From Methylotenera sp. (GTDB lineage: Bacteria > Pseudomonadota > Gammaproteobacteria > Burkholderiales > Methylophilaceae), in the NCBI GenBank assembly GCA_040079935.1, contig JBEBJI010000006.1, forward strand, positions 17,077-81,076: 64,000 nucleotides of DNA, given 5' to 3'. The notes under the pieces are model-generated. The model ran no database searches. It was not told the DNA's origin and saw nothing but the letters and a program-made list of their open reading frames with translations. A program made the translations under genes and the position numbers. Of the stretch, positions 23,613-43,050 are shown in pieces; position 1 is the first letter of the stretch, and every line of letters starts with the position of its first letter.

Positions 23613-23924
23613 ATGATGCAATGGATTAAAATCGCACCATTTGATGAAATTCCAAAGCTAGGCGCGCGCGTAGTGCGTACAAAAGACATCGATATTGGCG
23701 TATTCCGCACTGAAGATGACCGAATTTTTGCCATTAACAATAGTTGCCCGCACAAGGGTGGGCCTTTGTCGCAAGGCATTGTCTATGGCGACAAAGTGGC
23801 TTGCCCTTTGCATTCGTGGAAAATCAGCTTGGTGGATGGTAGAGCAGAAGAACCAGATGAGGGCGAAACCGCGTGTTTTAACACTAAAATTGAAGATGGT
23901 TTTGTCTATTTAGAGCTTAAATGA
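23613..23924 (+). CDS. nirD: Nitrite reductase small (Rieske) subunit
   Basis: CPHKG...CPLH. Confidence 0.95.
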   Translation: MMQWIKIAPFDEIPKLGARVVRTKDIDIGVFRTEDDRIFAINNSCPHKGGPLSQGIVYGDKVACPLHSWKISLVDGRAEEPDEGETACFNTKIEDGFVYLELK

Positions 23925-26656
23925 TCAAAGAAACCAAAAGCACTTGTTGCTACTGTGGCGTGGGTTGCGGCGTGATTATTGAGTCGCAAAATGAAAAAAT
24001 TATTCACGTAAAGGGCGATCCTGATCATCCAGCTAACTTTGGCCGCTTATGTACCAAAGGCGCAACGCTGCACTTAAGTGCCAAAATGGATAATCGCGCA
24101 CTATATCCCGAAATTCGACTAAGTCGCGAGTCAAGCAGGAAGCGGGTTTCATGGGATATTTCACTCGATTATTTAACCGAAAAGTTCGCACAAACTATAG
24201 AAGAACATGGGTCAGATTCGGTTGCGTTTTATATTTCAGGTCAATTAATGACCGAAGATTATTATGTATTTAACAAACTCGCCAAGGGTTTGATTGGCAC
24301 CAATAATGTCGATACCAATTCGCGGCTGTGTATGTCTTCCGCCGTGACGGGTTACAAAGCCACGCTAGGCGCAGACGCCCCACCCGCTTGCTACGAAGAT
24401 ATCGACCACACTAATTGTTTGTTTATTGCGGGTAGCAACACCGCGTTTGCGCATCCTGTGATATTTAGGCGCATTGAAGACGCGAAAGCCAAAAATCCAA
24501 ACTTAAAAATCATCGTGGTCGATCCGCGCAAAACTGATACTGCACAGGCTTCCGATTTGCACCTCGCTATTTTACCTGGCACAGATGTCGCTCTATTTAA
24601 TGGACTTTTGCACGTGATGCTGTGGGAAGGTTTGCTGGACATGGCTTTTATACAAGCGCATACCAACGGTTTTGAAGCGCTGAAAGACACTGTGCGCGAA
24701 TATACGCCCAAAATGGTTGCGGATATTTGCGGCATTAAAGAAAGCGATATTATCCAAGCCGCCAAATGGTTTGGCAAAGGGCCGACCTTAAGCATGTATT
24801 GCATGGGTTTAAATCAAAGTATTCATGGCACGGATAAGAATGCCGCACTTATTAACTTGCATCTAGCCACTGGACAAATAGGCAAGCCTGGCGCAGGACC
24901 ATTCTCACTCACAGGTCAGCCAAATGCCATGGGCGGTCGCGAAGTGGGTGGCATGGCAAATTTGCTCTCAGCGCATCGAGATTTAAATAATCCACAGCAT
25001 CGTGCAGAAATAGCCAAATTCTGGGGCGTACAGGATGTGCCAGCAACTGCGGGTAAAACTGCGGTAGAAATGTTTGATGCAGTTAAAAGTGGCGAAATTA
25101 AAGCTATTTGGATTGCTTGTACCAATCCTGCGCAATCGATGCCTGATTTGAATAATGTGCTAGAGGCCTTAAATACGGCTGAATTTGTTGTGGTGCAAGA
25201 TGCGTTTAACAACACCAGTACTAGCCCTTATGCAGATGTATTGCTGCCAGCCAGCACTTGGGGCGAAAAAGAAGGTACTGTCACTAACTCGGAACGTCGC
25301 ATTACTCGCGTCAATCCAGCCGTAGCGCCACCTGCAGAGGCGCGACACGATTGGGCGATTATGGTGGATTTTGCACAGCGCTTAGAGAAACGGCTAGCGA
25401 AAAATAGCAATTTATTTCCATACACCAGCACTGAAGAAATCTTTAACGAGCATCGCGAAACCACGCGTGGTCGCGATTTGGATATTACTGGCTTAAGTTT
25501 TAAATTATTAAATGAAAAAGGTCCGCAACAATGGCCTTTTAAACAAGGCCAAGAACACGGAGCGACGCGGCTTTACGAAGATGGTATTTTTCAAAAACCA
25601 GACGGTCGTGCGCAATTTGTCAACGCCACCTACAAGCCGCAAGCCGATAAAACCGACGCGCGGCATCCACTACACTTGCTTACTGGCCGCTTGCGTGACC
25701 AATGGCACGGCATGAGCCGCACCGCTAACGTCGCGCAGCTGTTTAACCATGCAGAAGAACCCGTCATTCAAATCAGCGCTGATGACATGATGCGCCGCAA
25801 CTTAAAAAATGGCGATATTGTCAAAGTGAGCAACAAACGTGGTAGTTTGGTGTTGCCAGCGCAAACATCGGACGAAGTACAACCCGCGCAGACGTTTATC
25901 GCCATGCATTGGGGTAGCAAGTTTATGCATGGCTTGGGCGTGAACGCACTGATGCCGCCAAATTTTGATAAAACCTCGAAACAGCCAGAGCTAAAGCATA
26001 CCGCGATTAAGCTGGAAAAACTAGAACTGCCTTGGCGCATGACGATTATGCATAGCTGCCAAGATTTAACTTTGTTGGAAAAAGTACGTGCGCTGATGCC
26101 GCAATTTACCTATGCAAGTTGTGGTTTATTTGGGCGCGAAACTGAAAGCAATAAAGCGGGTCTGTTGATTTTACGTGCTGCTAATGAAGCCTCACCAGCG
26201 CTTGAGTTGATAGAACAAATTGACGAAATTTTAGGCATGACAGAAGACTCGCCCTGCCTGAATTATAACGATGCTAAGCGCGCCATTAGCAAACGTATTT
26301 TGGTTGAAAATAATGCGATTAGCGGCAAGCCAGAAGTAACTGGCGTGCGCTTGATGGGCGAAACGCTGGCGGCAGAATGGCTAAAAGAAGTGATGACAGA
26401 AGGCACATTCACTGATGAGTTGCGGCGCTGGGCGCTAGCACCTTTATCCGCGCCACCTTCAGGCCAAGTGGGGCGCGGAAAAATTGTGTGTAACTGCCTA
26501 GATATTTCGCAAAATGAAATTATAGAAAACATTGAATTGGGCGCAGACTTAATTACGCTGCAAAACAAACTGAAATGCGGTACTGAGTGTGGTTCTTGTG
26601 TACCAGAGCTAAAACGGCTAGTGCATACACACAGCAAGATTTTTGTTGTCAATTAA
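23921..26656 (+). CDS. nasA: Assimilatory nitrate reductase catalytic subunit
   Basis: CCYCGVGC...LCTKG, SRLCMSS, GQPNAMGGRE, C-terminal CNC...CGTECGSC. Confidence 0.97.
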   Translation: MIKETKSTCCYCGVGCGVIIESQNEKIIHVKGDPDHPANFGRLCTKGATLHLSAKMDNRALYPEIRLSRESSRKRVSWDISLDYLTEKFAQTIEEHGSDSVAFYISGQLMTEDYYVFNKLAKGLIGTNNVDTNSRLCMSSAVTGYKATLGADAPPACYEDIDHTNCLFIAGSNTAFAHPVIFRRIEDAKAKNPNLKIIVVDPRKTDTAQASDLHLAILPGTDVALFNGLLHVMLWEGLLDMAFIQAHTNGFEALKDTVREYTPKMVADICGIKESDIIQAAKWFGKGPTLSMYCMGLNQSIHGTDKNAALINLHLATGQIGKPGAGPFSLTGQPNAMGGREVGGMANLLSAHRDLNNPQHRAEIAKFWGVQDVPATAGKTAVEMFDAVKSGEIKAIWIACTNPAQSMPDLNNVLEALNTAEFVVVQDAFNNTSTSPYADVLLPASTWGEKEGTVTNSERRITRVNPAVAPPAEARHDWAIMVDFAQRLEKRLAKNSNLFPYTSTEEIFNEHRETTRGRDLDITGLSFKLLNEKGPQQWPFKQGQEHGATRLYEDGIFQKPDGRAQFVNATYKPQADKTDARHPLHLLTGRLRDQWHGMSRTANVAQLFNHAEEPVIQISADDMMRRNLKNGDIVKVSNKRGSLVLPAQTSDEVQPAQTFIAMHWGSKFMHGLGVNALMPPNFDKTSKQPELKHTAIKLEKLELPWRMTIMHSCQDLTLLEKVRALMPQFTYASCGLFGRETESNKAGLLILRAANEASPALELIEQIDEILGMTEDSPCLNYNDAKRAISKRILVENNAISGKPEVTGVRLMGETLAAEWLKEVMTEGTFTDELRRWALAPLSAPPSGQVGRGKIVCNCLDISQNEIIENIELGADLITLQNKLKCGTECGSCVPELKRLVHTHSKIFVVN

Positions 26657-31501: not shown

Positions 31502-31717
31502 TGTTGTCTATGGATCCAATGGTTGATATCGCCGAGCTTGATTTTCATAATCTTAGCTTTCTTGCGAAGGTTAGCCATCATTCCATTTCATTCGGGGATA
31601 GTCTGTACGCTGACACACATAGGCGACAAGCCAACTTTTAGTGAGCTAACTAAAGGGAAATAAAGATTTTAGTGCGCTTATTTCTTGTAAGAATCAACAC
31701 TGAAACTACAAAAATAG

Positions 31718-31756
31718 ATGCTCTGTAACCCAATATCCATGCGGGTTGCAGAGCAT
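31718..31756 (-). repeat. 39-bp palindromic repeat, best-formed intergenic copy
   Basis: ATGCTCTGTAACCC AATATCCATGC GGGTTGCAGAGCAT; arms 13/14 complementary; 20 bp past the pntB stop. Confidence 0.93.
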
Positions 31757-31775: not shown

Positions 31776-33146
31776 TTAATCGATTGCTTTTACAATCGCT
31801 TCAACCACATGTTTCGCATCGCCAAACACCATCATAGTTTTATCGAGGTAAAACAGCTCATTATCAAGCCCAGCATAGCCCGCGGCCATGCTGCGTTTAT
31901 TCACAATAATCGTTTTTGCTTTGTATGCCTCTAAAATCGGCATGCCGTAAATGGAGCTGCCAGTTTTTTTTGCGGCGGGGTTCACCACATCGTTCGCGCC
32001 AATCACAAACACTACGTCTGTCTGGCCAAATTCATTGTTCACATCTTCCATCTCCACCACTTGCTCGTAAGGTACGTCGGCTTCGGCTAAAAGCACGTTC
32101 ATATGCCCTGGCATGCGCCCTGCGACTGGGTGAATGGCATATTTCACATTCACCCCTTTGGCGATTAATTTGGTGGTGAGCTCTTGCAAAGCATGCTGTG
32201 CGCGAGATACCGCCAAGCCATAGCCTGGCACAATGATTACCGTATCTGCATTGCCCATTAAAAACGCGACATCGTCTGCCGAGCCTGATTTCACGGCTTT
32301 TTGTTCACCGCCAGCGTCGCCCACCGCCACTTCAGCGCCAAATCCGCCGAGCATGACGGCGATAATCGAGCGGTTCATGGCCTTGCACATAATATAAGAC
32401 AAAATCGCACCAGACGAACCTACGCAAGCGCCAGCGATAATTAGCACCGAATTATTGAGCGTAAAGCCAATGCCCGCCGCCGCCCAACCAGAATAACTAT
32501 TAAGCATGGAAACCACCACCGGCATATCCGCCCCACCAATGGGGATGATGAGCGTTATGCCTAGCACTAGCGCTAAGCCGCACATAATTAAAAATGCGGT
32601 TTGGCTACTTTGTAAATAGAACAAAATACCAAAACCTAGCATGAGCAAGGCGAGCACAAGATTTAACAAATGCTGACCTTTAAAAATGGCGGGCTTGGAG
32701 CCAAATTTGCCTGAAAGTTTGCCGAAAGCGACTACAGAAGCAGTAAACGTAATCGCACCAATAAACGCACCGATAAAGAGCTCAACACGTTGAACACTTG
32801 TGTGGCTTTCTGCAGTGTTAAATACTGCAGCAATAGCGATTAGCACCGCCGATAAGCCCACAAACGAGTGCATCAGCGCTACCAGCTCGGGCATTTTGGT
32901 CATCTGCACGCGTTTTGCAGCCAGTGTGCCGACAATTGCCCCTAACACAATCGCGCCCGTAATTAGCGGAACAATCAGGTTATGCCCAACAAAAAATGTA
33001 GTTGCCACGGCAATTGCCATACCGACCATACCCAGCGCATTGCCCAAGCGCGCGCTGGTAGGAGAAGCTAACCCTTTGAGTGAAAAAATGAATAAAATCG
33101 CAGAGATTAAATATGCAGCTGTCGTGAAATTAGGGTTAACGGTCAT
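31776..33146 (-). CDS. pntB: NAD(P) transhydrogenase beta subunit
   Basis: MPELVALMHSFVG, GGADMPV, HPVAGRMPGHMNVLLAEA, GANDVVNP. Confidence 0.97.
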   Translation of the reverse strand: MTVNPNFTTAAYLISAILFIFSLKGLASPTSARLGNALGMVGMAIAVATTFFVGHNLIVPLITGAIVLGAIVGTLAAKRVQMTKMPELVALMHSFVGLSAVLIAIAAVFNTAESHTSVQRVELFIGAFIGAITFTASVVAFGKLSGKFGSKPAIFKGQHLLNLVLALLMLGFGILFYLQSSQTAFLIMCGLALVLGITLIIPIGGADMPVVVSMLNSYSGWAAAGIGFTLNNSVLIIAGACVGSSGAILSYIMCKAMNRSIIAVMLGGFGAEVAVGDAGGEQKAVKSGSADDVAFLMGNADTVIIVPGYGLAVSRAQHALQELTTKLIAKGVNVKYAIHPVAGRMPGHMNVLLAEADVPYEQVVEMEDVNNEFGQTDVVFVIGANDVVNPAAKKTGSSIYGMPILEAYKAKTIIVNKRSMAAGYAGLDNELFYLDKTMMVFGDAKHVVEAIVKAID

Positions 33147-33466
33147 TAGTGGCTGACCTCTTTAACTTTAGCTTCTTTCTTTTTAAACATCTCCAGCATT
33201 CTGCGCGTCACCATAAAACCGCCGAAAATATTAATCGACGTTAAAAACACCGCAATTGCGCCTAAAATACTAGTTAGATTTAATGTGTTGCTGTCAATAT
33301 TCACCGTTTGCAGCATCGCGCCGACAATCACAATGCCCGAAATTGCGTTGGTAACAGACATCAGCGGCGTATGTAATGCGGGTGTCACCGTCCAAACCAC
33401 GTGGTAACCGACAAAAATGGCTAATACGAAAATAGTGATATTTTGCATGGTGAGTAAGTCAGTCAT
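33146..33466 (-). CDS. pntA: NAD(P) transhydrogenase alpha subunit, membrane part (PntAb)
   Basis: [30 protein letters not shown]. Confidence 0.95.
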
Positions 33467-33492
33467 CGCTTCTTCCCTATTTCTTCTGTTGT

Positions 33493-34617
33493 CTATTTGT
33501 TAATAACTTGACCGTCTTTGCACATCAAACTGGCGGTCACTAATTCGTCATCGGATGGAATGTTAAATTTGCCATCTCGAACTAATAGCTTCAAAAACTC
33601 CAAAATATTGCGTGCATAAAATGCGGAAGCATCCGCTGCTACCAAACTGGGCAAATTGGTATAGCCGACAATCGTCACACCGTGTTTATTCACTACTTTA
33701 TTCGCTTCTGTCAGCGGACAATTGCCTGCGCCCGTTTTGCTTGTGCCTGCCGCCATGTCGATAATCACCGAGCCTGGCTTCATCAAAGCAATCGTTTCAG
33801 CATGAATTAAAGTGGGTGGCTCACGGCCAGGAATGAGTGCAGAAGAAATCACAATATCAGCCTCAGCAGCGCGCTGGGCAACGAGTGCAGCCTGGCGCTG
33901 CATCCAAGAAGTGGGCATGGGTCGCGCGTATCCGCCCACGCCAGTCGCGCATTCTTTTTCTTCTTCGCTTTCATAAGGCACGTCCAAAAACTTAGCGCCT
34001 AATGATTCAATTTGTTCTTTCACCGCTGGCCGCACGTCGGAGGCTTCGACCACAGCACCTAATCTTTTGGCCGTAGCGATCGCCTGCAAGCCTGCAACCC
34101 CTGCTCCAAGAACCAGTACCCGCGCGGCTTTCACCGTGCCTGCAGAAGTCATTAACATCGGCATAAAACGTTGATAAAAATGGCTGCCGAGTAGCACCGC
34201 CTTGTAACCCGCCACATTGGCTTGTGATGACAACACGTCCATACTTTGTGCACGGCTATTCCGCGGCAAAGCTTCAAGTGAGAATGCTGTCAAACCTTGA
34301 TCTGCCATCGCTTTAAGTTGCGTTTGGTTAAATGGCTCGAGCAGGCCGATTAATACGGTGTCTGCCTGCATCGCCTTTATTTCTGAGGCTTCTGGCGCAC
34401 GTACTTTTAAAATTACATCAGCTTTAAATATCTCTTTAGCAGAAACAAGCTCTGCACCAGCGGTTTTGTATGCTTCGTCGGTAATACTGGCGAGCTCACC
34501 AGCGCCTTTTTGCACCAAGACTTGGCAACCCAAAGCGATGATTTTCTTAATGGTTTCTGGCGTCGCTGCCACGCGACATTCATGCTCTTTAATTTCGGTA
34601 GGAACGCCTATTTTCAT
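33493..34617 (-). CDS. pntA: NAD(P) transhydrogenase alpha subunit, NAD-binding part (PntAa)
   Basis: [36 protein letters not shown]. Confidence 0.95.
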
Positions 34618-34632
34618 TTTATGACTTGTACC

Positions 34633-35388
34633 TTATTGATTAGCCTGTTTGCAGATTTCCACGAAAGCTTTGGCGTCCAGTGAGCATCGTCCCACCAATC
34701 CGCCATCGATATCAGGCATAGCGAACAACGCTACTGCATTGTATGGATTTAAACTGCCACCGTAGAGAATGCGTACATTTTTTGCAATTTGTTTATTACA
34801 TCTGGCAACGCGGTTACGAATAAACTTATGTACCTGTTGTGCCTGATCTGGCGTAGCCGGAACATCCGTGCCAACGGCCCAAAGTGGTTCGTAAGCCAGT
34901 ACTGCCTTCTCTAATACTTCAGCGCCATAGCGCCTAATGATTGAGTCTAATTGGCGGCCAACTATATATTCCGTCCAATCTGATTCTCGCTCTTCTTTAG
35001 ACTCCCCCATGCAAAAAATAGGTGTTAATCCAGCCTCTTCTGCCGCGTTAAACCTTGTCGCAGCAGTGTCGTCGGTTTCATGAAACTGAATACGTCGTTC
35101 TGAATGACCGACAATCACATACCTACATCCGTAATCGGCTAGCATAAAAGCAGATACTGCACCTGTGAGCGCAACATTCTCATTTGCACACAGGTTTTGT
35201 GCACCCCATTGCACATTAGTTTCTTTTAACAAGGCCTGTGCTTGAGCAAGATATGGATACGGCACACAAACAACGAAATCTGCTCGATGCAAATCGCGCG
35301 TACCACTAATTAGGCTTTGCAATAAGGCCTGATTTTGTGCAATACGGCCATTCATTTTCCAATTACCCACTACAAGCTTACGTCTCAT
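34633..35388 (-). CDS. tpiA: Triosephosphate isomerase (cbb-operon copy)
   Basis: GNWKMN, VGHSERR, AYEPLWAVG, LYGGS, DGGLVG. Confidence 0.95.
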   Translation of the reverse strand: MRRKLVVGNWKMNGRIAQNQALLQSLISGTRDLHRADFVVCVPYPYLAQAQALLKETNVQWGAQNLCANENVALTGAVSAFMLADYGCRYVIVGHSERRIQFHETDDTAATRFNAAEEAGLTPIFCMGESKEERESDWTEYIVGRQLDSIIRRYGAEVLEKAVLAYEPLWAVGTDVPATPDQAQQVHKFIRNRVARCNKQIAKNVRILYGGSLNPYNAVALFAMPDIDGGLVGRCSLDAKAFVEICKQANQ

Positions 35389-35489
35389 TTTGTTATTTTA
35401 CCTTACAACTTATCTAACCACTGGAGCTAGGCATTTGTGTTCTAGCAACTATCTAAGCGATATTAGCACCACTTTGTTTGCTTTTCCGA

Positions 35490-36353
35490 TCATTTTTTAC
35501 TATCTTCCATCAGCTGTAAGACTCTAGGTGTAAAAATAAATTGCAATGCTAAGCCCATTTTCCCTCCAGGTACAACAATCGTATTTGGCCGCGTAATCAT
35601 TGAGCCATGTAGCATGCTGAGTAGATATTGAAAATCCACTCCTTTGGAATCAGCAAAACGTATGACCAAAATACTTTCGTCAGGGCTAGGTATGTCTTTA
35701 GCGATGAATGGATTAGAGGTGTCTACGGTTGGTACGCGCTGAAAATTGATATGCGTGCGCGAAAACTGTGGGCAAATATGATGGATATAATCCGGCATTC
35801 TATTCAAGATGGTATCAATTACCGCTTCCGATGAATAACCACGCATTTTTTGGTCGCGATGTAGCTTTTGTATCCATTCTAAATTGATAATTGGTACTAC
35901 GCCTACCAATAAATCCACATGTTTTGCAACGTCTGCATCAGGCCCAACATAGCCACCATGCAAGCCTTCATAAAATAAAATGTCAGATTCTGCATCCTCC
36001 CACGGGGTCATGGTGCCGGCTTTTTGAGAGTAAGGACGCCCTTCTTCATCACTGTGAACATATTTTCTTGTTTTGCATTTGCCAGTTTTGCCGAAAGTTT
36101 CAAATGTTTTGGCGAGTTCTCCCAAAATATTCGCTTCTGGGCCAAAATGGCTAAAATTTGCGCCAGACACAATGTCGCGTTGCTTTATCAGCGCGTCCAT
36201 TTCAGTGCGCTCGTAGCGATGGTATGAATCGCCCTCAATTACTGTAGCATTGATTTTTTCCCGCTTAAATATATGCTGAAAACTCTGCCTAACTGTAGTT
36301 GTTCCAGAACCAGATGAACCAGTAATTGCTATAATTGGAAATTTTTTGGACAT
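35490..36353 (-). CDS. prkB: Phosphoribulokinase (proteobacterial type)
   Basis: ITGSSGSGTT, EGDSYHRY, HFGPEAN, FYEGLHG, FQRVPTVDTSNPF; ATG at 36353. Confidence 0.95.
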   Translation of the reverse strand: MSKKFPIIAITGSSGSGTTTVRQSFQHIFKREKINATVIEGDSYHRYERTEMDALIKQRDIVSGANFSHFGPEANILGELAKTFETFGKTGKCKTRKYVHSDEEGRPYSQKAGTMTPWEDAESDILFYEGLHGGYVGPDADVAKHVDLLVGVVPIINLEWIQKLHRDQKMRGYSSEAVIDTILNRMPDYIHHICPQFSRTHINFQRVPTVDTSNPFIAKDIPSPDESILVIRFADSKGVDFQYLLSMLHGSMITRPNTIVVPGGKMGLALQFIFTPRVLQLMEDSKK

Positions 36354-36399: not shown

Positions 36400-37305
36400 T
36401 TAGGTTTGCTTGGCATCAAGTCCGCCGCTAAACACGCGAGAAGCGCGAATATCGGCCTCAGTAATTAATGACAAATCTTCTGCTGTTGTTTCTTTTTTAT
36501 GCTTAATTGCGTCATTAAACAATCGGTTCGCTTGCCGCAATCTAGCACGATCTAGTGCATTTCTAATCGAACGTGCATTGGCAAAATGCGGCTGCTGTTT
36601 ACGCCTCAGAATGTAATCTTGCATGGCCTTTAGGGCAGATTTGTCCAAATCATAATGCATAGAATCCGCCATTAACTTTGTGATTTCCAGCAGCTCATTT
36701 TCATCATAATCAGGGAAATCCACATGATGCGCGATGCGCGACGACATGCCTGGGTTCGATTTAAAGAACGTGCCCATGCGGTCTTGATAACCCGCCAAAA
36801 TCACTACTAAATCATCTCTGTGGTTTTCCATGGTTTGCAATAAAATTTCGATAGACTCTTGCCCGTAATCGCGCTCATTTTCTGGCTTGTAAAGGTAATA
36901 AGCCTCATCAATAAACAGCACGCCGCCCATAGCCTTTTTAATGACTTCTTTGGTTTTTGGCGCAGTATGGCCGATATATTGCCCTACCAAGTCATCGCGC
37001 GTCACGCTCACCACATGATTCTGCCGAATGTAGCCTAAACGATGCAAAATATCAGCCATTTTAAGCGCAACTGTTGTTTTGCCTGTGCCTGGGTTGCCTG
37101 TAAAACACATGTGTAAGCTAGGTTTCGTAGCTTCAATGCCTAATTGCAGCCGCGCTTTGGTAATGAGCAAATAGGCCGCAATCTCGCGTATGCGCTGCTT
37201 CACAGGTACTAAACCGACTAAATCTTGATCAAGCTTATCCAGCACCTCATTAATGTGAGATTCTTCTAGTAGCGCTTGAATATCGATTTTGTCGGTTTTA
37301 GCCAT
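36400..37305 (-). CDS. cbbX: Red-type RuBisCO activase CbbX
   Basis: [39 protein letters not shown]. Confidence 0.97.
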
Positions 37306-37739
37306 TAATAACGTTCGCCTTCTGGCTTATCAGTCGCATAAGAATGAATAGTATAGCGGATGTTGCGGCCATTGGTTTCTTGACGCACCAAGCCAAATCC
37401 TGGTTCATTTTTAGGGCGGTTTACAATATAAGACATAGTCGGACTTTCCACACCACGCACCGAGCTAAAAGCCATGACGCGGATGTAATGATTGGGGAAC
37501 GTTTTGCGGCAATTGTTAATTTCCAGCAAAATGCCAGCAGGATCTTTCAAATCGAACATCGGCGCGCCGTACATCTCCCAATAAGTATTGCGCGGATGCG
37601 GATCATCGGTATATTCCACTGAAAGCGCCCAGCCTTTGCCCAGCGCATACTTAATTTGCGCAGTGATTTGCACGTCTGTTAGCGGCGGCAGAAAAGAAAA
37701 CTGCCCTTGCGTTACGATTCCATTTGGGTTGGTCATCAT
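37305..37739 (-). CDS. cbbS: RuBisCO small subunit, red type
   Basis: [27 protein letters not shown]-terminal YTIHSY hairpin extension. Confidence 0.97.
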
Positions 37740-37776: not shown

Positions 37777-39276
<1,500 letters not shown>

Positions 39277-39330
39277 TCACCCTTCCAGTTAAAGAATAGT
39301 TTCGATACGCTACTTTATTAAACTTTAAAG

Positions 39331-39377
39331 TTAAGTTATATTAATAAATTCTTTACATAAGATTAAGCATTGCTTAA
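39331..39377. promoter_or_regulatory. CbbR (LysR) operator motifs
   Basis: TNA-N7-TNA at 39331, 39353 and 39364; the last is within the palindrome TTAAGCATTGCTTAA. Confidence 0.6.
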
Positions 39378-39417
39378 CCATGCTTATATTTATGCCAATT
39401 TTTTTGAGAAAATTTTT

Positions 39418-40338
39418 TTGAAAAACCTTACTTTGCGTCAAATCAGAATATTTATAAGTGCAGCAAAGCACTTAAGCTTTACCCGCGCGGCAGAAGAATT
39501 GCACATTTCAGCACCCGCTATTTCCTTGCAAATCAAGGAGATGGAAGAAGATATTGGCGTGAGTTTATTCACGCGCGAAAACCGAAAAGTCGCACTGACA
39601 TCTGCAGGCGAATATTTTTTACTTTATGCGCGCCGAGTTTCTAGCACACTCAACGAAGCCAATACCATGATGGAGCGCTTTCGCGGCACGCAATTTAGGC
39701 ACTTAAAAATTGGCGTGGTGAGCACGGCGAAGTATTTTTTACCGCATTTGTTGGTGGAATTTAAAAAAGATTACCCTAACTTGCAAATTAAAATTGAAGC
39801 GCGTAACCGCCAACAATTAGTAGAATTGCTACGCGATGGCGAGATTGACATCGCAATTATGGGCTTGCCGCCTAAGGAAATTGACACTCGAGTTGAATCG
39901 TTTGCTAACCACCCGCACGTATTTATTGCCAGTCCAAACAACCTGCTGGCGAACAAGCTCAACATTCCGCCAGATGCGCTCACGCAATATGAAATGATTA
40001 CGCGTGAACCTGGCTCTGGTACGCGCGCGATCATGGAAAAATACTTTGCCGAGCATGGTATTGCGCCGATTGTTAGCATGGAAATGTCCAGTAACGAGAC
40101 GATTAAACAAGCGGTAATGGCTGATTTGGGCATCTCTTTCGTGTCTTTGCACACCATCGGCAGCGAGCTTGCAACTAAGCAAATCGCTATTTTGGATATT
40201 CAAGATACGCCCATCATCCGCACCTGGCATGTGGTTGCGCTGAATAAACGCAACGCAAGTCAAGCGGCAGAAGCGTTTAGATATTTTGTACTAGAAAAAG
40301 GTGGGGAGATTTTAACCAGCATGTTTGCTGAAATTTAG
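39418..40338 (+). CDS. cbbR: LysR regulator CbbR
   Basis: LTLRQ...SFTRAAEELH HTH, REPGSGTR, SNETIKQAVMA; divergent from cbbL; TTG start at 39418 assumed. Confidence 0.92.
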   Translation: MKNLTLRQIRIFISAAKHLSFTRAAEELHISAPAISLQIKEMEEDIGVSLFTRENRKVALTSAGEYFLLYARRVSSTLNEANTMMERFRGTQFRHLKIGVVSTAKYFLPHLLVEFKKDYPNLQIKIEARNRQQLVELLRDGEIDIAIMGLPPKEIDTRVESFANHPHVFIASPNNLLANKLNIPPDALTQYEMITREPGSGTRAIMEKYFAEHGIAPIVSMEMSSNETIKQAVMADLGISFVSLHTIGSELATKQIAILDIQDTPIIRTWHVVALNKRNASQAAEAFRYFVLEKGGEILTSMFAEI

Positions 40339-41160: not shown

Positions 41161-42933
41161 CTATTTTGGTAGTGCATAAACCAATAAAGCATCGCCTTGT
41201 TTGTAACCAAATATCGAGCTACCGCCACTCGCCACTGCGATATATTGCACGCCGTCTATGGTGTAAGTAATCGGTGGCGCGTTCACGCCAAACTCTGATT
41301 TCGCTTGCCACAACAATTCGCCAGTTTGGCTGTTATAAGCGTTAAAGTGACCGTCGCCCTCACCCATAAATACCAATCCACCTGCGGTTGCAAGCACGCC
41401 ACCAATCAACGGTTGCGCAGTTTTAGTTTGCCAAGCAATTTTTCCCGAGTTCAAATCAATGCTCGAGAGTAAGCCCCAGCGCGGGTCTTGCGTCGGCTCA
41501 CTGGCCGCATATCTAATGGCTGGAGCACCATCTTTGCTGGGCGTTTCGTGTAAGGTATATTTAATCGGGGCATGAATTGCCGCGACAAATACGCGCTGAT
41601 TGGCTTCATCCACGCTCACGGGTGACCAATTTGCGCCGCCCAAAATGCCTGGGTAACCCACCATGCCTTCAAAGGTGGCTTTTTTAAACATGTTTTGTTG
41701 CGGCACAAAGGCATCTGATTTTTTCAGCAATTTACTTGTAGCTCTATCATGAATATAGAACCAACCTGTTTTACTGGCCTGACCAACGGCGGCAATGGTT
41801 TTGCCACCTTGCTGATAATTAAATAGTACGGGTGGACTGGCTAAATCGTAGCCCCACAAATCGTGCGGCACTTGCTGATAATGCCATTTAAGCGCACCAG
41901 TGTTGACATCCAGCGCAACTAAAGACACTGTATAAAGATTATCACCTGGGCGAGAAATATCGTTCATCTGCGGACTTGGATTGCCTGTGCCAAAATAGAG
42001 CGTATCGCTTTCGCTATCTATCGCAGGCGTGCTCCAAGCCGATCCACCACCAAAGCGCGCAGAGTCTGCATATTTGGCTGCATCAGCTTTTTCTTGCGCC
42101 ACATCGCGGTTCAAGTTGATGCCATCTTCGGTTGTCTCGGTAAATTTGCCTTCCCAACCTGCATCTGGAATCGTGTCAAATTGCCACACACGCTTGCCGT
42201 TTTGCACATCGTACGCTGCCAAAAACCCTGGTCGACCAAAGCGTCCAGCCACGCCGATAACCGCGCCTAGCGGCGCATCTGCTGTCGGGTTATCAATATG
42301 CAAGCCATAACCCACGCCCGTAATACCAACAATGACTTTGCCTTTGTACACCACTGGCGCCATGGCGATGCCAATGCCCGTGCCGCCAGTCACTTTGCGC
42401 GCGCTGTTCGGGTCATCTTTATTCAACGCATCTTGACCTTCGGTAACAATTGCGCCCTCCACCACGTCAATATCCCACTCTTTCGCGCCAGTGCTCGCGT
42501 TGAGCGCAATCAAGCGTGCATCTACCGTACCAATAAATACTCTACCATTGCTAACTGCAACGCCCCTATTCGCTGGGCCACAGCACATTTTCCAATCTTT
42601 TCTGCGGTCATGCTCATAACGCCAAAGCTGCTTACCGGTTTTTGCATTCAACGCGACGACATGATTGAAAGGTAACGATAAATACATCACGCCATTTTGC
42701 ACAATCGGCGTGGCTTGGAAGCTAGCTGTGATGCCGCTTTTGTACACCCAAGCTTGCGTCAAATCTTTCACATTTTTAGTGTTTATTTGTGTGGCGGATG
42801 AAAAACGTTTGCTAGAATAATCTTGCCCGTAGCTCGGCCAGTCTTGGTTTTTAGCGCTATTTTGTTGTGTTATTTGCGTGCATGCTGTCAGCAAAGCGAA
42901 AGCGGCAATCAGTAAAGTTCTTAAACGTTTCAT
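41161..42933 (-). CDS. PQQ-dependent dehydrogenase-family lipoprotein, atypical active site
   Basis: Lipobox LTAC; WPSYG, FQATP, CCGPANRG, GTGNP, GGANW, W-motif propeller repeats; ATG at 42933. Confidence 0.9.
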   Translation of the reverse strand: MKRLRTLLIAAFALLTACTQITQQNSAKNQDWPSYGQDYSSKRFSSATQINTKNVKDLTQAWVYKSGITASFQATPIVQNGVMYLSLPFNHVVALNAKTGKQLWRYEHDRRKDWKMCCGPANRGVAVSNGRVFIGTVDARLIALNASTGAKEWDIDVVEGAIVTEGQDALNKDDPNSARKVTGGTGIGIAMAPVVYKGKVIVGITGVGYGLHIDNPTADAPLGAVIGVAGRFGRPGFLAAYDVQNGKRVWQFDTIPDAGWEGKFTETTEDGINLNRDVAQEKADAAKYADSARFGGGSAWSTPAIDSESDTLYFGTGNPSPQMNDISRPGDNLYTVSLVALDVNTGALKWHYQQVPHDLWGYDLASPPVLFNYQQGGKTIAAVGQASKTGWFYIHDRATSKLLKKSDAFVPQQNMFKKATFEGMVGYPGILGGANWSPVSVDEANQRVFVAAIHAPIKYTLHETPSKDGAPAIRYAASEPTQDPRWGLLSSIDLNSGKIAWQTKTAQPLIGGVLATAGGLVFMGEGDGHFNAYNSQTGELLWQAKSEFGVNAPPITYTIDGVQYIAVASGGSSIFGYKQGDALLVYALPK

Positions 42934-43050
42934 CGAGGATTCCAATCAATTTACTATACAAGTTAGTATATACCGAGTATGTTAAAGTTTCCAAGCGGTT
43001 TCAAGCTAAAATATGCATTACTTACTAAAATAAATCATTCGCTAAGTCAC

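Follow-up and report, generated by a model that had tools for sequence, protein, structure and literature searches.

A reduced red-type RuBisCO operon with triose-phosphate isomerase and transhydrogenase genes in a Methylotenera genome

Gene content of the cbb locus

A cbb operon of Methylotenera sp. (assembly GCA_040079935.1, Methylophilaceae), which couples RuBisCO genes to genes for a triose-phosphate isomerase (TPI) and a transhydrogenase, is described here. It lies in a stretch of 64,000 nucleotides, referred to as the window, which corresponds to positions 17077-81076 of contig C67 (JBEBJI010000006.1); the genome has 2.4 Mb, a completeness of 99.86% and a contamination of 2.1%. The genes cbbL-cbbS-cbbX-prk-tpiA-pntAA-pntAB-pntB are all located on the minus strand, and cbbR is oriented divergently on the opposite strand. 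Gene identities were assigned by Pfam and NCBIfam profile matches, and gene positions at this locus are those of the window. These matches confirmed the identities and coordinates of the original prediction, an observation correct in every detail. Its statement that the cluster itself lacks genes for fructose-1,6-bisphosphatase (FBPase), transketolase, fructose-bisphosphate aldolase (FBA), glyceraldehyde-3-phosphate dehydrogenase (GAPDH) and phosphoglycerate kinase (PGK) was also borne out; copies of these genes are present on other contigs.

The large subunit of a red-type form I RuBisCO is encoded by cbbL (37777-39270, minus strand; RuBisCO_large 437 bits; PF00016/PF02788), the product of which scored 770 bits against NF003252, above the cut-off of 438. 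The nearest solved structures of CbbL (1BWV, 4F0H, 8BDB, 1BXN, 5NV3) are of the red lineage and come from red algae, a diatom, Cupriavidus and Rhodobacter. The adjacent small subunit gene cbbS (37305-37739, minus; PF00101, 124 bits) completes the form I pair. Directly downstream of cbbS follows cbbX (36400-37305, minus) for the AAA+ activase of red-type RuBisCO (TIGR02880, 494 bits, above the cut-off of 459), which matched the CbbX structures 3SYL/3ZUH from Rhodobacter sphaeroides with an E value of 1e-127. The phosphoribulokinase (PRK) gene prk, or cbbP (35490-36353, minus; NF011997, 463 bits, above 362), is located on the same strand 46 bp behind cbbX, without a cbbF upstream. Its start at 36353 had been predicted, and the ATG at this position is indeed preceded by a strong Shine-Dalgarno sequence, AGAGGGTGGAG. 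The predicted subunit pair, CbbX and prk together identify the locus as a red-type form I RuBisCO operon. The divergent cbbR (39370-40338, plus strand) codes for a LysR-type regulator with HTH_1 and LysR_substrate domains; it scored 283.6 bits against the NCBIfam CbbR model NF045990, under the cut-off of 450.

The distal part of the operon begins with tpiA (34633-35388, minus), a cbb-linked TPI paralog (PF00121 (TIM), 287 bits; TIGR00419, 194 bits, above 130.6). The catalytic residues Asn/Lys (GNWK), His (GHSERR) and Glu (YEPxWA) are retained, and loop 6 shows a change from GTG to GTD that is common to the sole-copy TPIs of Methylopumilus. Phylogenetically, the operon tpiA belongs to a clade of its own (100/99 support), apart from the housekeeping tpiA linked to secG. 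The transhydrogenase consists of three polypeptides: the alpha-1 subunit with the NAD(H)-binding domain dI (pntAA, 33493-34617, minus; AlaDh_PNT_N and AlaDh_PNT_C, PF05222 and PF01262; NF006942, 404 bits), the alpha-2 subunit forming a membrane part of four transmembrane segments (pntAB, 33146-33466, minus; PF12769, 127 bits) and the beta subunit with a membrane part and domain dIII, which binds NADP(H) (pntB, 31776-33146, minus; PF02233 (PNTB), 616 bits). It is a PntAB at the family level and not at the equivalog level, as the score for the E. coli-type equivalog model NF006974 was 547 bits, below 689.

Intergenic distances are small throughout, with 37 bp between cbbL and cbbS, -1 bp between cbbS and cbbX, 46 bp between cbbX and prk, 101 bp between prk and tpiA, 15 bp between tpiA and pntAA, 26 bp between pntAA and pntAB and -1 bp between pntAB and pntB. 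The short gaps predicted from prk to pntB were thus measured as -1 to 101 bp. The longest, the prk-tpiA spacer (35389-35489, minus), is the site of cbbA (and cbbZ) in related operons.

Calvin and ribulose monophosphate enzymes in the genome

The whole genome was searched by tblastn with E. coli proteins and by hidden Markov model searches. A tkt-gap-pgk cluster was located on contig C27, and a native convergent pair on C29 comprises fba (32970-34034, plus) and a class I fbp (34040-35035, minus). Other contigs carry rpe-gph (C45), rpiA (C18), tal adjoining hps (C39), a second hps (C21), zwf (C5), gnd (C6) and edd-eda (C79); the two hps matches were above the TIGR03128 cut-off. The genes tkt, gap, pgk, fba, fbp, tal, rpe and rpiA are each present as a single copy on contigs other than that of the operon. 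RuBisCO, prk and pntAB are single-copy as well, with pntB giving one tblastn match genome-wide. Homologs of GlpX and PfkA were not found in the genome. The tblastn search with E. coli FbaA returned no aldolase; this was a matter of sensitivity, because a later Pfam search found the class II enzyme on C29.

The genome therefore encodes all eleven enzyme activities of the Calvin-Benson-Bassham cycle, namely RuBisCO, PGK, GAPDH, TPI, FBA, FBPase, transketolase, sedoheptulose-bisphosphatase (SBPase) or transaldolase, ribulose-phosphate epimerase, ribose-phosphate isomerase and PRK. Hexulose-phosphate synthase, the key enzyme of the ribulose monophosphate (RuMP) cycle, coexists with RuBisCO and PRK. 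Judged by predicted gene functions, the organism thus has the genes for a complete Calvin cycle in addition to those for the RuMP cycle.

An incomplete cycle had been read from the genes absent from the operon. This reading did not hold, since every missing enzyme is encoded elsewhere in a genome of 99.86% completeness. The prediction had also named, as a finding that would speak against it, a second cbb cluster supplying the missing genes in an organism growing lithoautotrophically. This applies by half, as the genes are supplied, but by housekeeping copies. Its proposal that the regeneration of ribulose 5-phosphate (Ru5P) is borrowed from the RuMP enzymes agrees with the inventory: tkt, tal, rpe and rpiA occur once each and serve the RuMP cycle as well, and there are two hps genes. 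It had further suggested looking for second copies of tpiA and pntAB and for a bifunctional FBPase/SBPase. Two further tpiA genes were found: C70 holds a housekeeping copy beside secG, and C35 a divergent one that stands by itself. No second pntAB was found; one class I FBPase is present, but no GlpX.

Full and reduced operons in the Methylophilaceae

Among 361 species-level genomes of the Methylophilaceae, 76 carry RuBisCO; for the genus of the window the figure is 22 out of 47. Operon regions were fetched and gene-mapped for 20 loci, 16 of them from this genus. At 14 loci cbbF was present, in 13 cases together with cbbA, and some loci carried cbbZ. Wherever the fetched stretch was long enough, the operon closed with tpiA-pntAB or pntAB. 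Most common is the arrangement cbbR<>cbbL-S-X-cbbF-prk-(cbbZ)-cbbA-tpiA-pntAA-AB-B, which occurs in other genera, too (L139, L158-L160). The shorter arrangement cbbLSX-prk-tpiA-pntAB was found in four genomes, that of the window and three others (G311, G312, G304; loci L125, L129, L132), and two genomes have cbbLSX-prk-pntAB (L126, L130), with tpiA lost as well.

The window is collinear with the full operons in blastn alignments and shows a clean absence of cbbF and cbbA. Collinearity breaks exactly at the prk-tpiA spacer, and the cbbF of the relatives is located between cbbX and prk. In a tree of six concatenated proteins the reduced operons were scattered among full operons, all outgroups were full, and the window was sister to a full operon with 93.5/96 support; the TPI tree agreed. 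Because of this scattering and the full outgroups, the short operon is, in this reconstruction, the derived form, and about three independent losses gave rise to the six reduced derivatives.

Nearly every genome of the genus contains exactly one FBPase, of class I, and a single class II FBA. In the genomes with a full operon, including G299 and G320 with 98-99% completeness, these single genes are those of the operon. In all six genomes with a reduced operon they belong to a native fba-(tpi)-fbp cluster, which is also present in genus-mates without RuBisCO. This reciprocal pattern shows that either copy of FBPase and FBA serves both pathways, the redundancy having been settled in one way or the other. 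The absence of cbbF and cbbA from the operon in the window would then be due to the retention of the native fba/fbp pair on C29. A relocated cbbF was considered as origin of the C29 FBPase and rejected, as the protein grouped with the native FBPases in the tree. The assignment of C29 to this genome is supported by the single-copy status of FBPase and FBA and by the occurrence of this native cluster in other genomes of the genus; a strict pattern for a 39-bp palindrome dispersed in the genome yielded only 39 copies and was unusable for checking it.

The comparison of the loci revealed further variation. Two operon types occur in the genus, one at L123, L131, L133, L135 and L136 and the other at L124, L127, L128 and L137. 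Between them, CbbF and PRK share about 52% and 73% identity, compared to 90-98% for CbbL, CbbS, CbbX, CbbA and PntB, which suggests that recombination has exchanged the cbbF-prk segment as a cassette. Remnants without RuBisCO are cbbR<>cbbF-cbbA-tpiA in L002 (metagenome-assembled genome (MAG) JAZJYS010000070.1) and cbbF-cbbA-tpiA-pntAB on contig C18 of G297 (L143); in both, former Calvin genes apparently now provide the genome's sole FBPase and aldolase. At L140 and L142 of the genus g5, cbbR<>cbbLSX lies a few kb from a housekeeping tkt-gap-pgk cluster, and neither a prk homolog nor tpiA or pntAB was detected in the stretches fetched. A second GAPDH gene stands directly after the operon, convergent to pntB, at L126 (G313), L144 (G307) and G316 C5:12894-13892.

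Two or more TPIs are present in almost every genome of the genus. The third TPI of the window's genome (C35:4523-5293, L163) is solitary and forms a long branch, has ANRKMNG in place of GNWKMNG and is located between ion-channel and GGDEF/EAL genes. Similar TPIs recur in G304, G311, G312, G313 and G298, exactly the genomes with a reduced cbb operon.

To assess selection on the operon, the ratio of nonsynonymous to synonymous substitutions (dN/dS) was calculated. It amounted to 0.02-0.09 for every gene except tpiA, with about 0.03 for cbbL, although saturation of dS makes these values rough. A ratio of 0.95 for prk against L125 was disregarded as an artefact of the automatic choice of the high-scoring segment pair. 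For tpiA, the fastest-evolving gene of the operon with a dN of 0.14-0.18, saturation of dS precluded a ratio. All operon genes with a computable ratio are under purifying selection.

Linkage of pntAB to the cbb genes

Within the genus, PntB was encoded in 20 of 22 RuBisCO-positive genomes, the other two having contigs that end inside pnt. It was present in 5 of 25 RuBisCO-negative genomes, and three of these five cases were operon fragments at contig ends. The co-occurrence of PntB and RuBisCO is significant (Fisher p = 1e-6). More than 25 species-level genomes from at least four genera share the order cbb...tpiA-pntAB although their synonymous sites are saturated, and after each deletion pntAA still follows the preceding cbb gene at a distance of 15-50 bp. 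The coupling of pntAB to the cbb genes, as originally predicted, is thus upheld by co-occurrence and by conserved adjacency.

Two public comparison sets were evaluated, the 80 nearest PRK loci and the 80 nearest PntB loci, the latter with cbb genes sought within 9 kb. At the PRK loci, FBPase was found beside prk in 76 cases, tkt in 46, FBA in 31, gap in 8, pgk in 6 and tpi in 2. The original prediction had held that typical red-type operons include cbbF, cbbT, cbbA and cbbG; this agrees with the frequencies of FBPase and tkt, applies to FBA in a part of the loci and to gap in few. None of the 79 PRK loci outside the Methylophilaceae contained pntAB, the only locus with pntAB being the single one from this family, and none of the 80 nearest PntB loci had cbb genes within 9 kb. 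The linkage of pntAB and cbb genes is family-specific.

Control region and transcription

The only non-coding stretch conserved across 18 related operons is a core of approximately 65 bp in the cbbR-cbbL intergenic region (39271-39377), as seen in the alignment. This region, a putative CbbR operator or promoter, contains the palindrome AACTTTAAAGTT (39321-39332) and the perfect inverted repeat TTAAGCAATGCTTAA (39363-39377), which is part of the core and conserved among the relatives. The predicted TTG start of cbbR falls in the middle of TTAAGCAATGCTTAA, and the NCBIfam match starts at residue 18 only; the true start is probably located downstream, and the repeat probably represents the LysR box. 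A Shine-Dalgarno sequence, GGAAGGG, precedes cbbL.

Directly after pntB, a terminator-like element on the minus strand (31709-31756) comprises a hairpin at 31718-31756 with a 14-bp stem and a subsequent UAUUUUU (dG -22.3 kcal/mol, z -2.2). The hairpin is one copy of the dispersed 39-bp palindrome. In the prk-tpiA spacer, folding and scanning revealed no stable structure (z +0.41), no terminator and no T-run, and the spacer sequence is not conserved among relatives. A scan for consensus promoters and terminators was uninformative, with nine promoter-like sites versus 14.5 expected from shuffled sequences and terminator matches inside genes. Co-transcription from cbbL to pntB appears plausible given the tight gaps, the lack of a terminator in the prk-tpiA spacer, the hairpin and T-run after pntB and a gene order that outlasted the saturation of dS in more than 25 species-level genomes.

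Proposed function and alternative explanations

RuMP methylotrophs of the KDPG-aldolase/transaldolase (KDPG, 2-keto-3-deoxy-6-phosphogluconate) type obtain hexose phosphate straight from formaldehyde and require little flux through TPI, aldolase and FBPase. Their NADPH originates from glucose-6-phosphate and 6-phosphogluconate dehydrogenases. Such a host would already run transketolase, transaldolase, Ru5P epimerase and isomerase, GAPDH and PGK as housekeeping enzymes, and an acquired Calvin module would have to contribute only four parts: RuBisCO with its activase, PRK, a block of TPI, aldolase and FBPase, and a cofactor supply. Entry of carbon as CO2 would demand a strong conversion of triose phosphates to fructose-6-phosphate, which may be the reason for cbbF, cbbA and tpiA in the ancestral operon. 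The pntAB genes code for the sole transhydrogenase of the genome and are apparently co-transcribed with the cbb genes. PntAB would use the proton gradient to convert NADH, gained in the oxidation of formate and other one-carbon (C1) compounds, to NADPH. Its place in the operon may be explained by the need of cells growing on CO2 for NADPH without decarboxylation of fixed carbon, as the oxidative RuMP branch burns carbon. The most likely role of pntAB is thus to provide NADPH during carbon entry via RuBisCO instead of the CO2-releasing oxidative RuMP branch. In Hydrogenophaga pseudoflava, deletion of pntAB impairs autotrophic growth only (PMC13725076), a phenotype which fits this role.

The genome contains XoxF-type methanol dehydrogenases and the Fdh alpha subunit of formate dehydrogenase. 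Neither a NiFe hydrogenase (tblastn with HyaA/HyaB, PF00374) nor SoxB was found in the genome. For this reason the oxidation of methanol, formate or other C1 compounds is the most likely energy source of CO2 fixation, which would be facultative or mixotrophic rather than classically lithoautotrophic. The DYD signature is present in three XoxF-like genes, on C27, C73 and C39; the C27 gene, which was scanned, scored about 620 bits. A pyrroloquinoline quinone dehydrogenase gene near cbbR (window 41161-42945, minus) reached 414 bits with the methanol/ethanol dehydrogenase model, below the cut-off of 480. The operon is followed, about 5 kb downstream, by a gene (window 23921-26656, plus) for a molybdopterin oxidoreductase which has a BFD-like 2Fe-2S tail and resembles assimilatory nitrate reductase.

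Taken together, we consider it likely that the locus is a CbbR-controlled red-type RuBisCO operon, trimmed from the design of the family, in an organism that encodes the full cycle, with pntAB supplying NADPH for a C1-powered or mixotrophic CO2 fixation. Several points weigh against this interpretation. The single transcript, the control of pntAB by CbbR and the in vivo direction of PntAB from NADH to NADPH are inferred, and the energy source of a true autotrophy is putative. The native FBPase may lack SBPase activity, although the transaldolase encoded on C39 could bypass this step. The dN/dS values are rough, as stated above. Free-standing pntAB genes occur in streamlined pelagic Methylophilaceae without RuBisCO (genera g2 and g33; L161, L162), which makes pntAB not intrinsically a Calvin-cycle gene, and many RuBisCO-positive Methylophilaceae of other genera are without pntAB.

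The strongest competing explanation is the shunt of the original prediction. During growth on C1 compounds, PRK and RuBisCO would form a non-cyclic bypass off the Ru5P of the RuMP cycle that recaptures CO2 from formaldehyde oxidation or serves as electron sink, with PntAB balancing the cofactors, and the organism would never be autotrophic. The intact RuMP genes (two hps, tal, zwf, gnd, edd-eda) and the genome searches without hydrogenase or SoxB are in line with such a bypass. A precedent is Methylococcus capsulatus Bath, in which RuMP enzymes and an essential RuBisCO operate with a non-canonical cycle via an oxidative pentose phosphate route (PMC8388818). However, a full regeneration route is encoded, and the cbbF-cbbA-tpiA block of the ancestral operon would be needless for a one-way path to 3-phosphoglycerate. 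The premise of the shunt, genes absent from the operon, is moreover explained by redundancy with native copies. We regard a pure shunt as rather unlikely, although it and the preferred reading are not exclusive: a complete cycle can run mixotrophically, and the two shade into each other.

It is far less probable that tpiA and pntAB are mere neighbours of the cbb genes, transcribed from promoters of their own, and that their position is functionally meaningless. A promoter could lie in the 101-bp prk-tpiA spacer, the uninformative promoter scan does not speak against one, and pntAB is free-standing in other Methylophilaceae. Against this reading stand the lack of conservation of the spacer among relatives and the gap of 15 bp between tpiA and pntAA. 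A chance neighbourhood is hard to reconcile with a gene order that persisted across genera despite saturated synonymous sites, with the return of pntAA to a position 15-50 bp behind a cbb gene after independent deletions of cbbA or tpiA, and with the near confinement of pntAB to RuBisCO-positive genomes of the genus (p = 1e-6). That the loss of cbbF and cbbA marks the first step in shedding an unused Calvin module, as the RuBisCO-less remnants in L002 and G297 and the fast evolution of tpiA might indicate, is hardly credible in view of eight intact open reading frames, the low dN/dS, a CbbL that is 94-98% identical to that of the relatives, the retained catalytic residues of TPI and the same reduced layout in four species, each with the native fba/fbp pair.

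The cofactor specificity of GAPDH was considered as a side observation. The only GAPDH of the genome (C27:64458-65453, L166/L250) is without the Asp that normally confers NAD specificity. The same holds for all GAPDHs detected in the 47 genomes of the genus (L251-L299); the motif reads VAVN-S/C/G in place of IND, with Asn-Asp replaced by Asn-Ser, Asn-Cys or Asn-Gly. The Asp is kept in GAPDHs of another Methylophilaceae genus and in CbbG of other taxa. These residues suggest a GAPDH accepting NADP(H) across the genus. A loss of Asp32 tracking RuBisCO or pntAB was rejected, as RuBisCO-less genomes of the genus lack Asp32, too. We offer only tentatively, and with more doubt than confidence, the idea that the Calvin module placed PntAB firmly under CbbR because NADPH is the bottleneck in the switch from RuMP to CO2, and that the GAPDH step may use NADPH made by PntAB. 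If true, this would be a Calvin cycle with reducing power provided via the membrane potential, and formate- or methanol-powered autotrophy would become possible in abundant lake methylotrophs.

Relation to known systems and significance

Classical form IC operons, such as those of Cupriavidus necator H16 and R. sphaeroides, contain cbbF, cbbT (tkt) and cbbA, often with cbbG, cbbK, cbbE and cbbZ. The window shares with classical red-type operons the divergent LysR regulator, cbbL-cbbS-cbbX with prk, a RuBisCO of the red lineage and the CbbX activase, but differs in lacking cbbF, cbbT, cbbA, cbbG and cbbK and in having tpiA and pntAB. The full Methylophilaceae operon of MAG S06.Bin152 (JAABQZ010000010.1, L001/L137) and those of genus-mates (L123-L139) have the same divergent cbbR, gene order and control region. 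In comparison with these full operons, CbbL is 94-98%, PntB 92-96% and the cbb-type TPI 77-88% identical, and cbbF and cbbA, in comparison with type A also cbbZ, are absent. The operon in the window is thus a shortened representative of a red-type cbb variant specific to the Methylophilaceae and not a new kind of system.

The RuBisCO operon of M. capsulatus is of the green type, cbbLSQ. M. capsulatus Bath resembles the organism of the window as a RuMP-dependent C1 oxidiser with RuBisCO and PRK and shared regeneration enzymes; it differs as a gammaproteobacterial methanotroph whose RuBisCO is experimentally essential and for which no linkage to a transhydrogenase is reported (PMC8388818). The ΔpntAB mutant of H. 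pseudoflava grew with a delay and less well on CO2/H2, and normally on fructose (PMC13725076). That paper does not report pntAB in a cbb operon, whereas in the family of the window the two are physically joined.

The Calvin cycle was described as absent from the Methylophilaceae (Salcher et al. 2019; PMC6794327). Later, in 2024-2025, RuBisCO and PRK were reported for clade LW2 of Methylotenera from lake water and for further MAGs of the Methylophilaceae, which were interpreted as facultative autotrophs (PMC11978286; bioRxiv 10.1101/2024.03.08.584096). These genomes resemble the window in belonging to the same family or genus and in having RuBisCO and PRK beside cbbR. The word 'transhydrogenase' does not occur in either of the two articles, and a full-text literature search returned nothing on tpiA in these operons or on the reciprocal pattern of FBPase and aldolase. 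RuBisCO in Methylotenera has therefore been published already; the operon design is well supported and apparently undescribed.

The Methylophilaceae rank among the most abundant methylotrophs of freshwater and coastal habitats, and a Calvin module in their genomes has a bearing on how much dark CO2 fixation is estimated for lakes. The reciprocal retention of FBPase and aldolase provides a natural example of an acquired pathway merging with a resident one, in which the module keeps only the non-overlapping steps and a cofactor converter. For the engineering of a Calvin cycle into methylotrophs or other hosts, it recommends the co-expression of PntAB and the TPI/FBA/FBPase block. The finding also bears on the role of RuBisCO in RuMP organisms, which has been open since the work on M. 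capsulatus.

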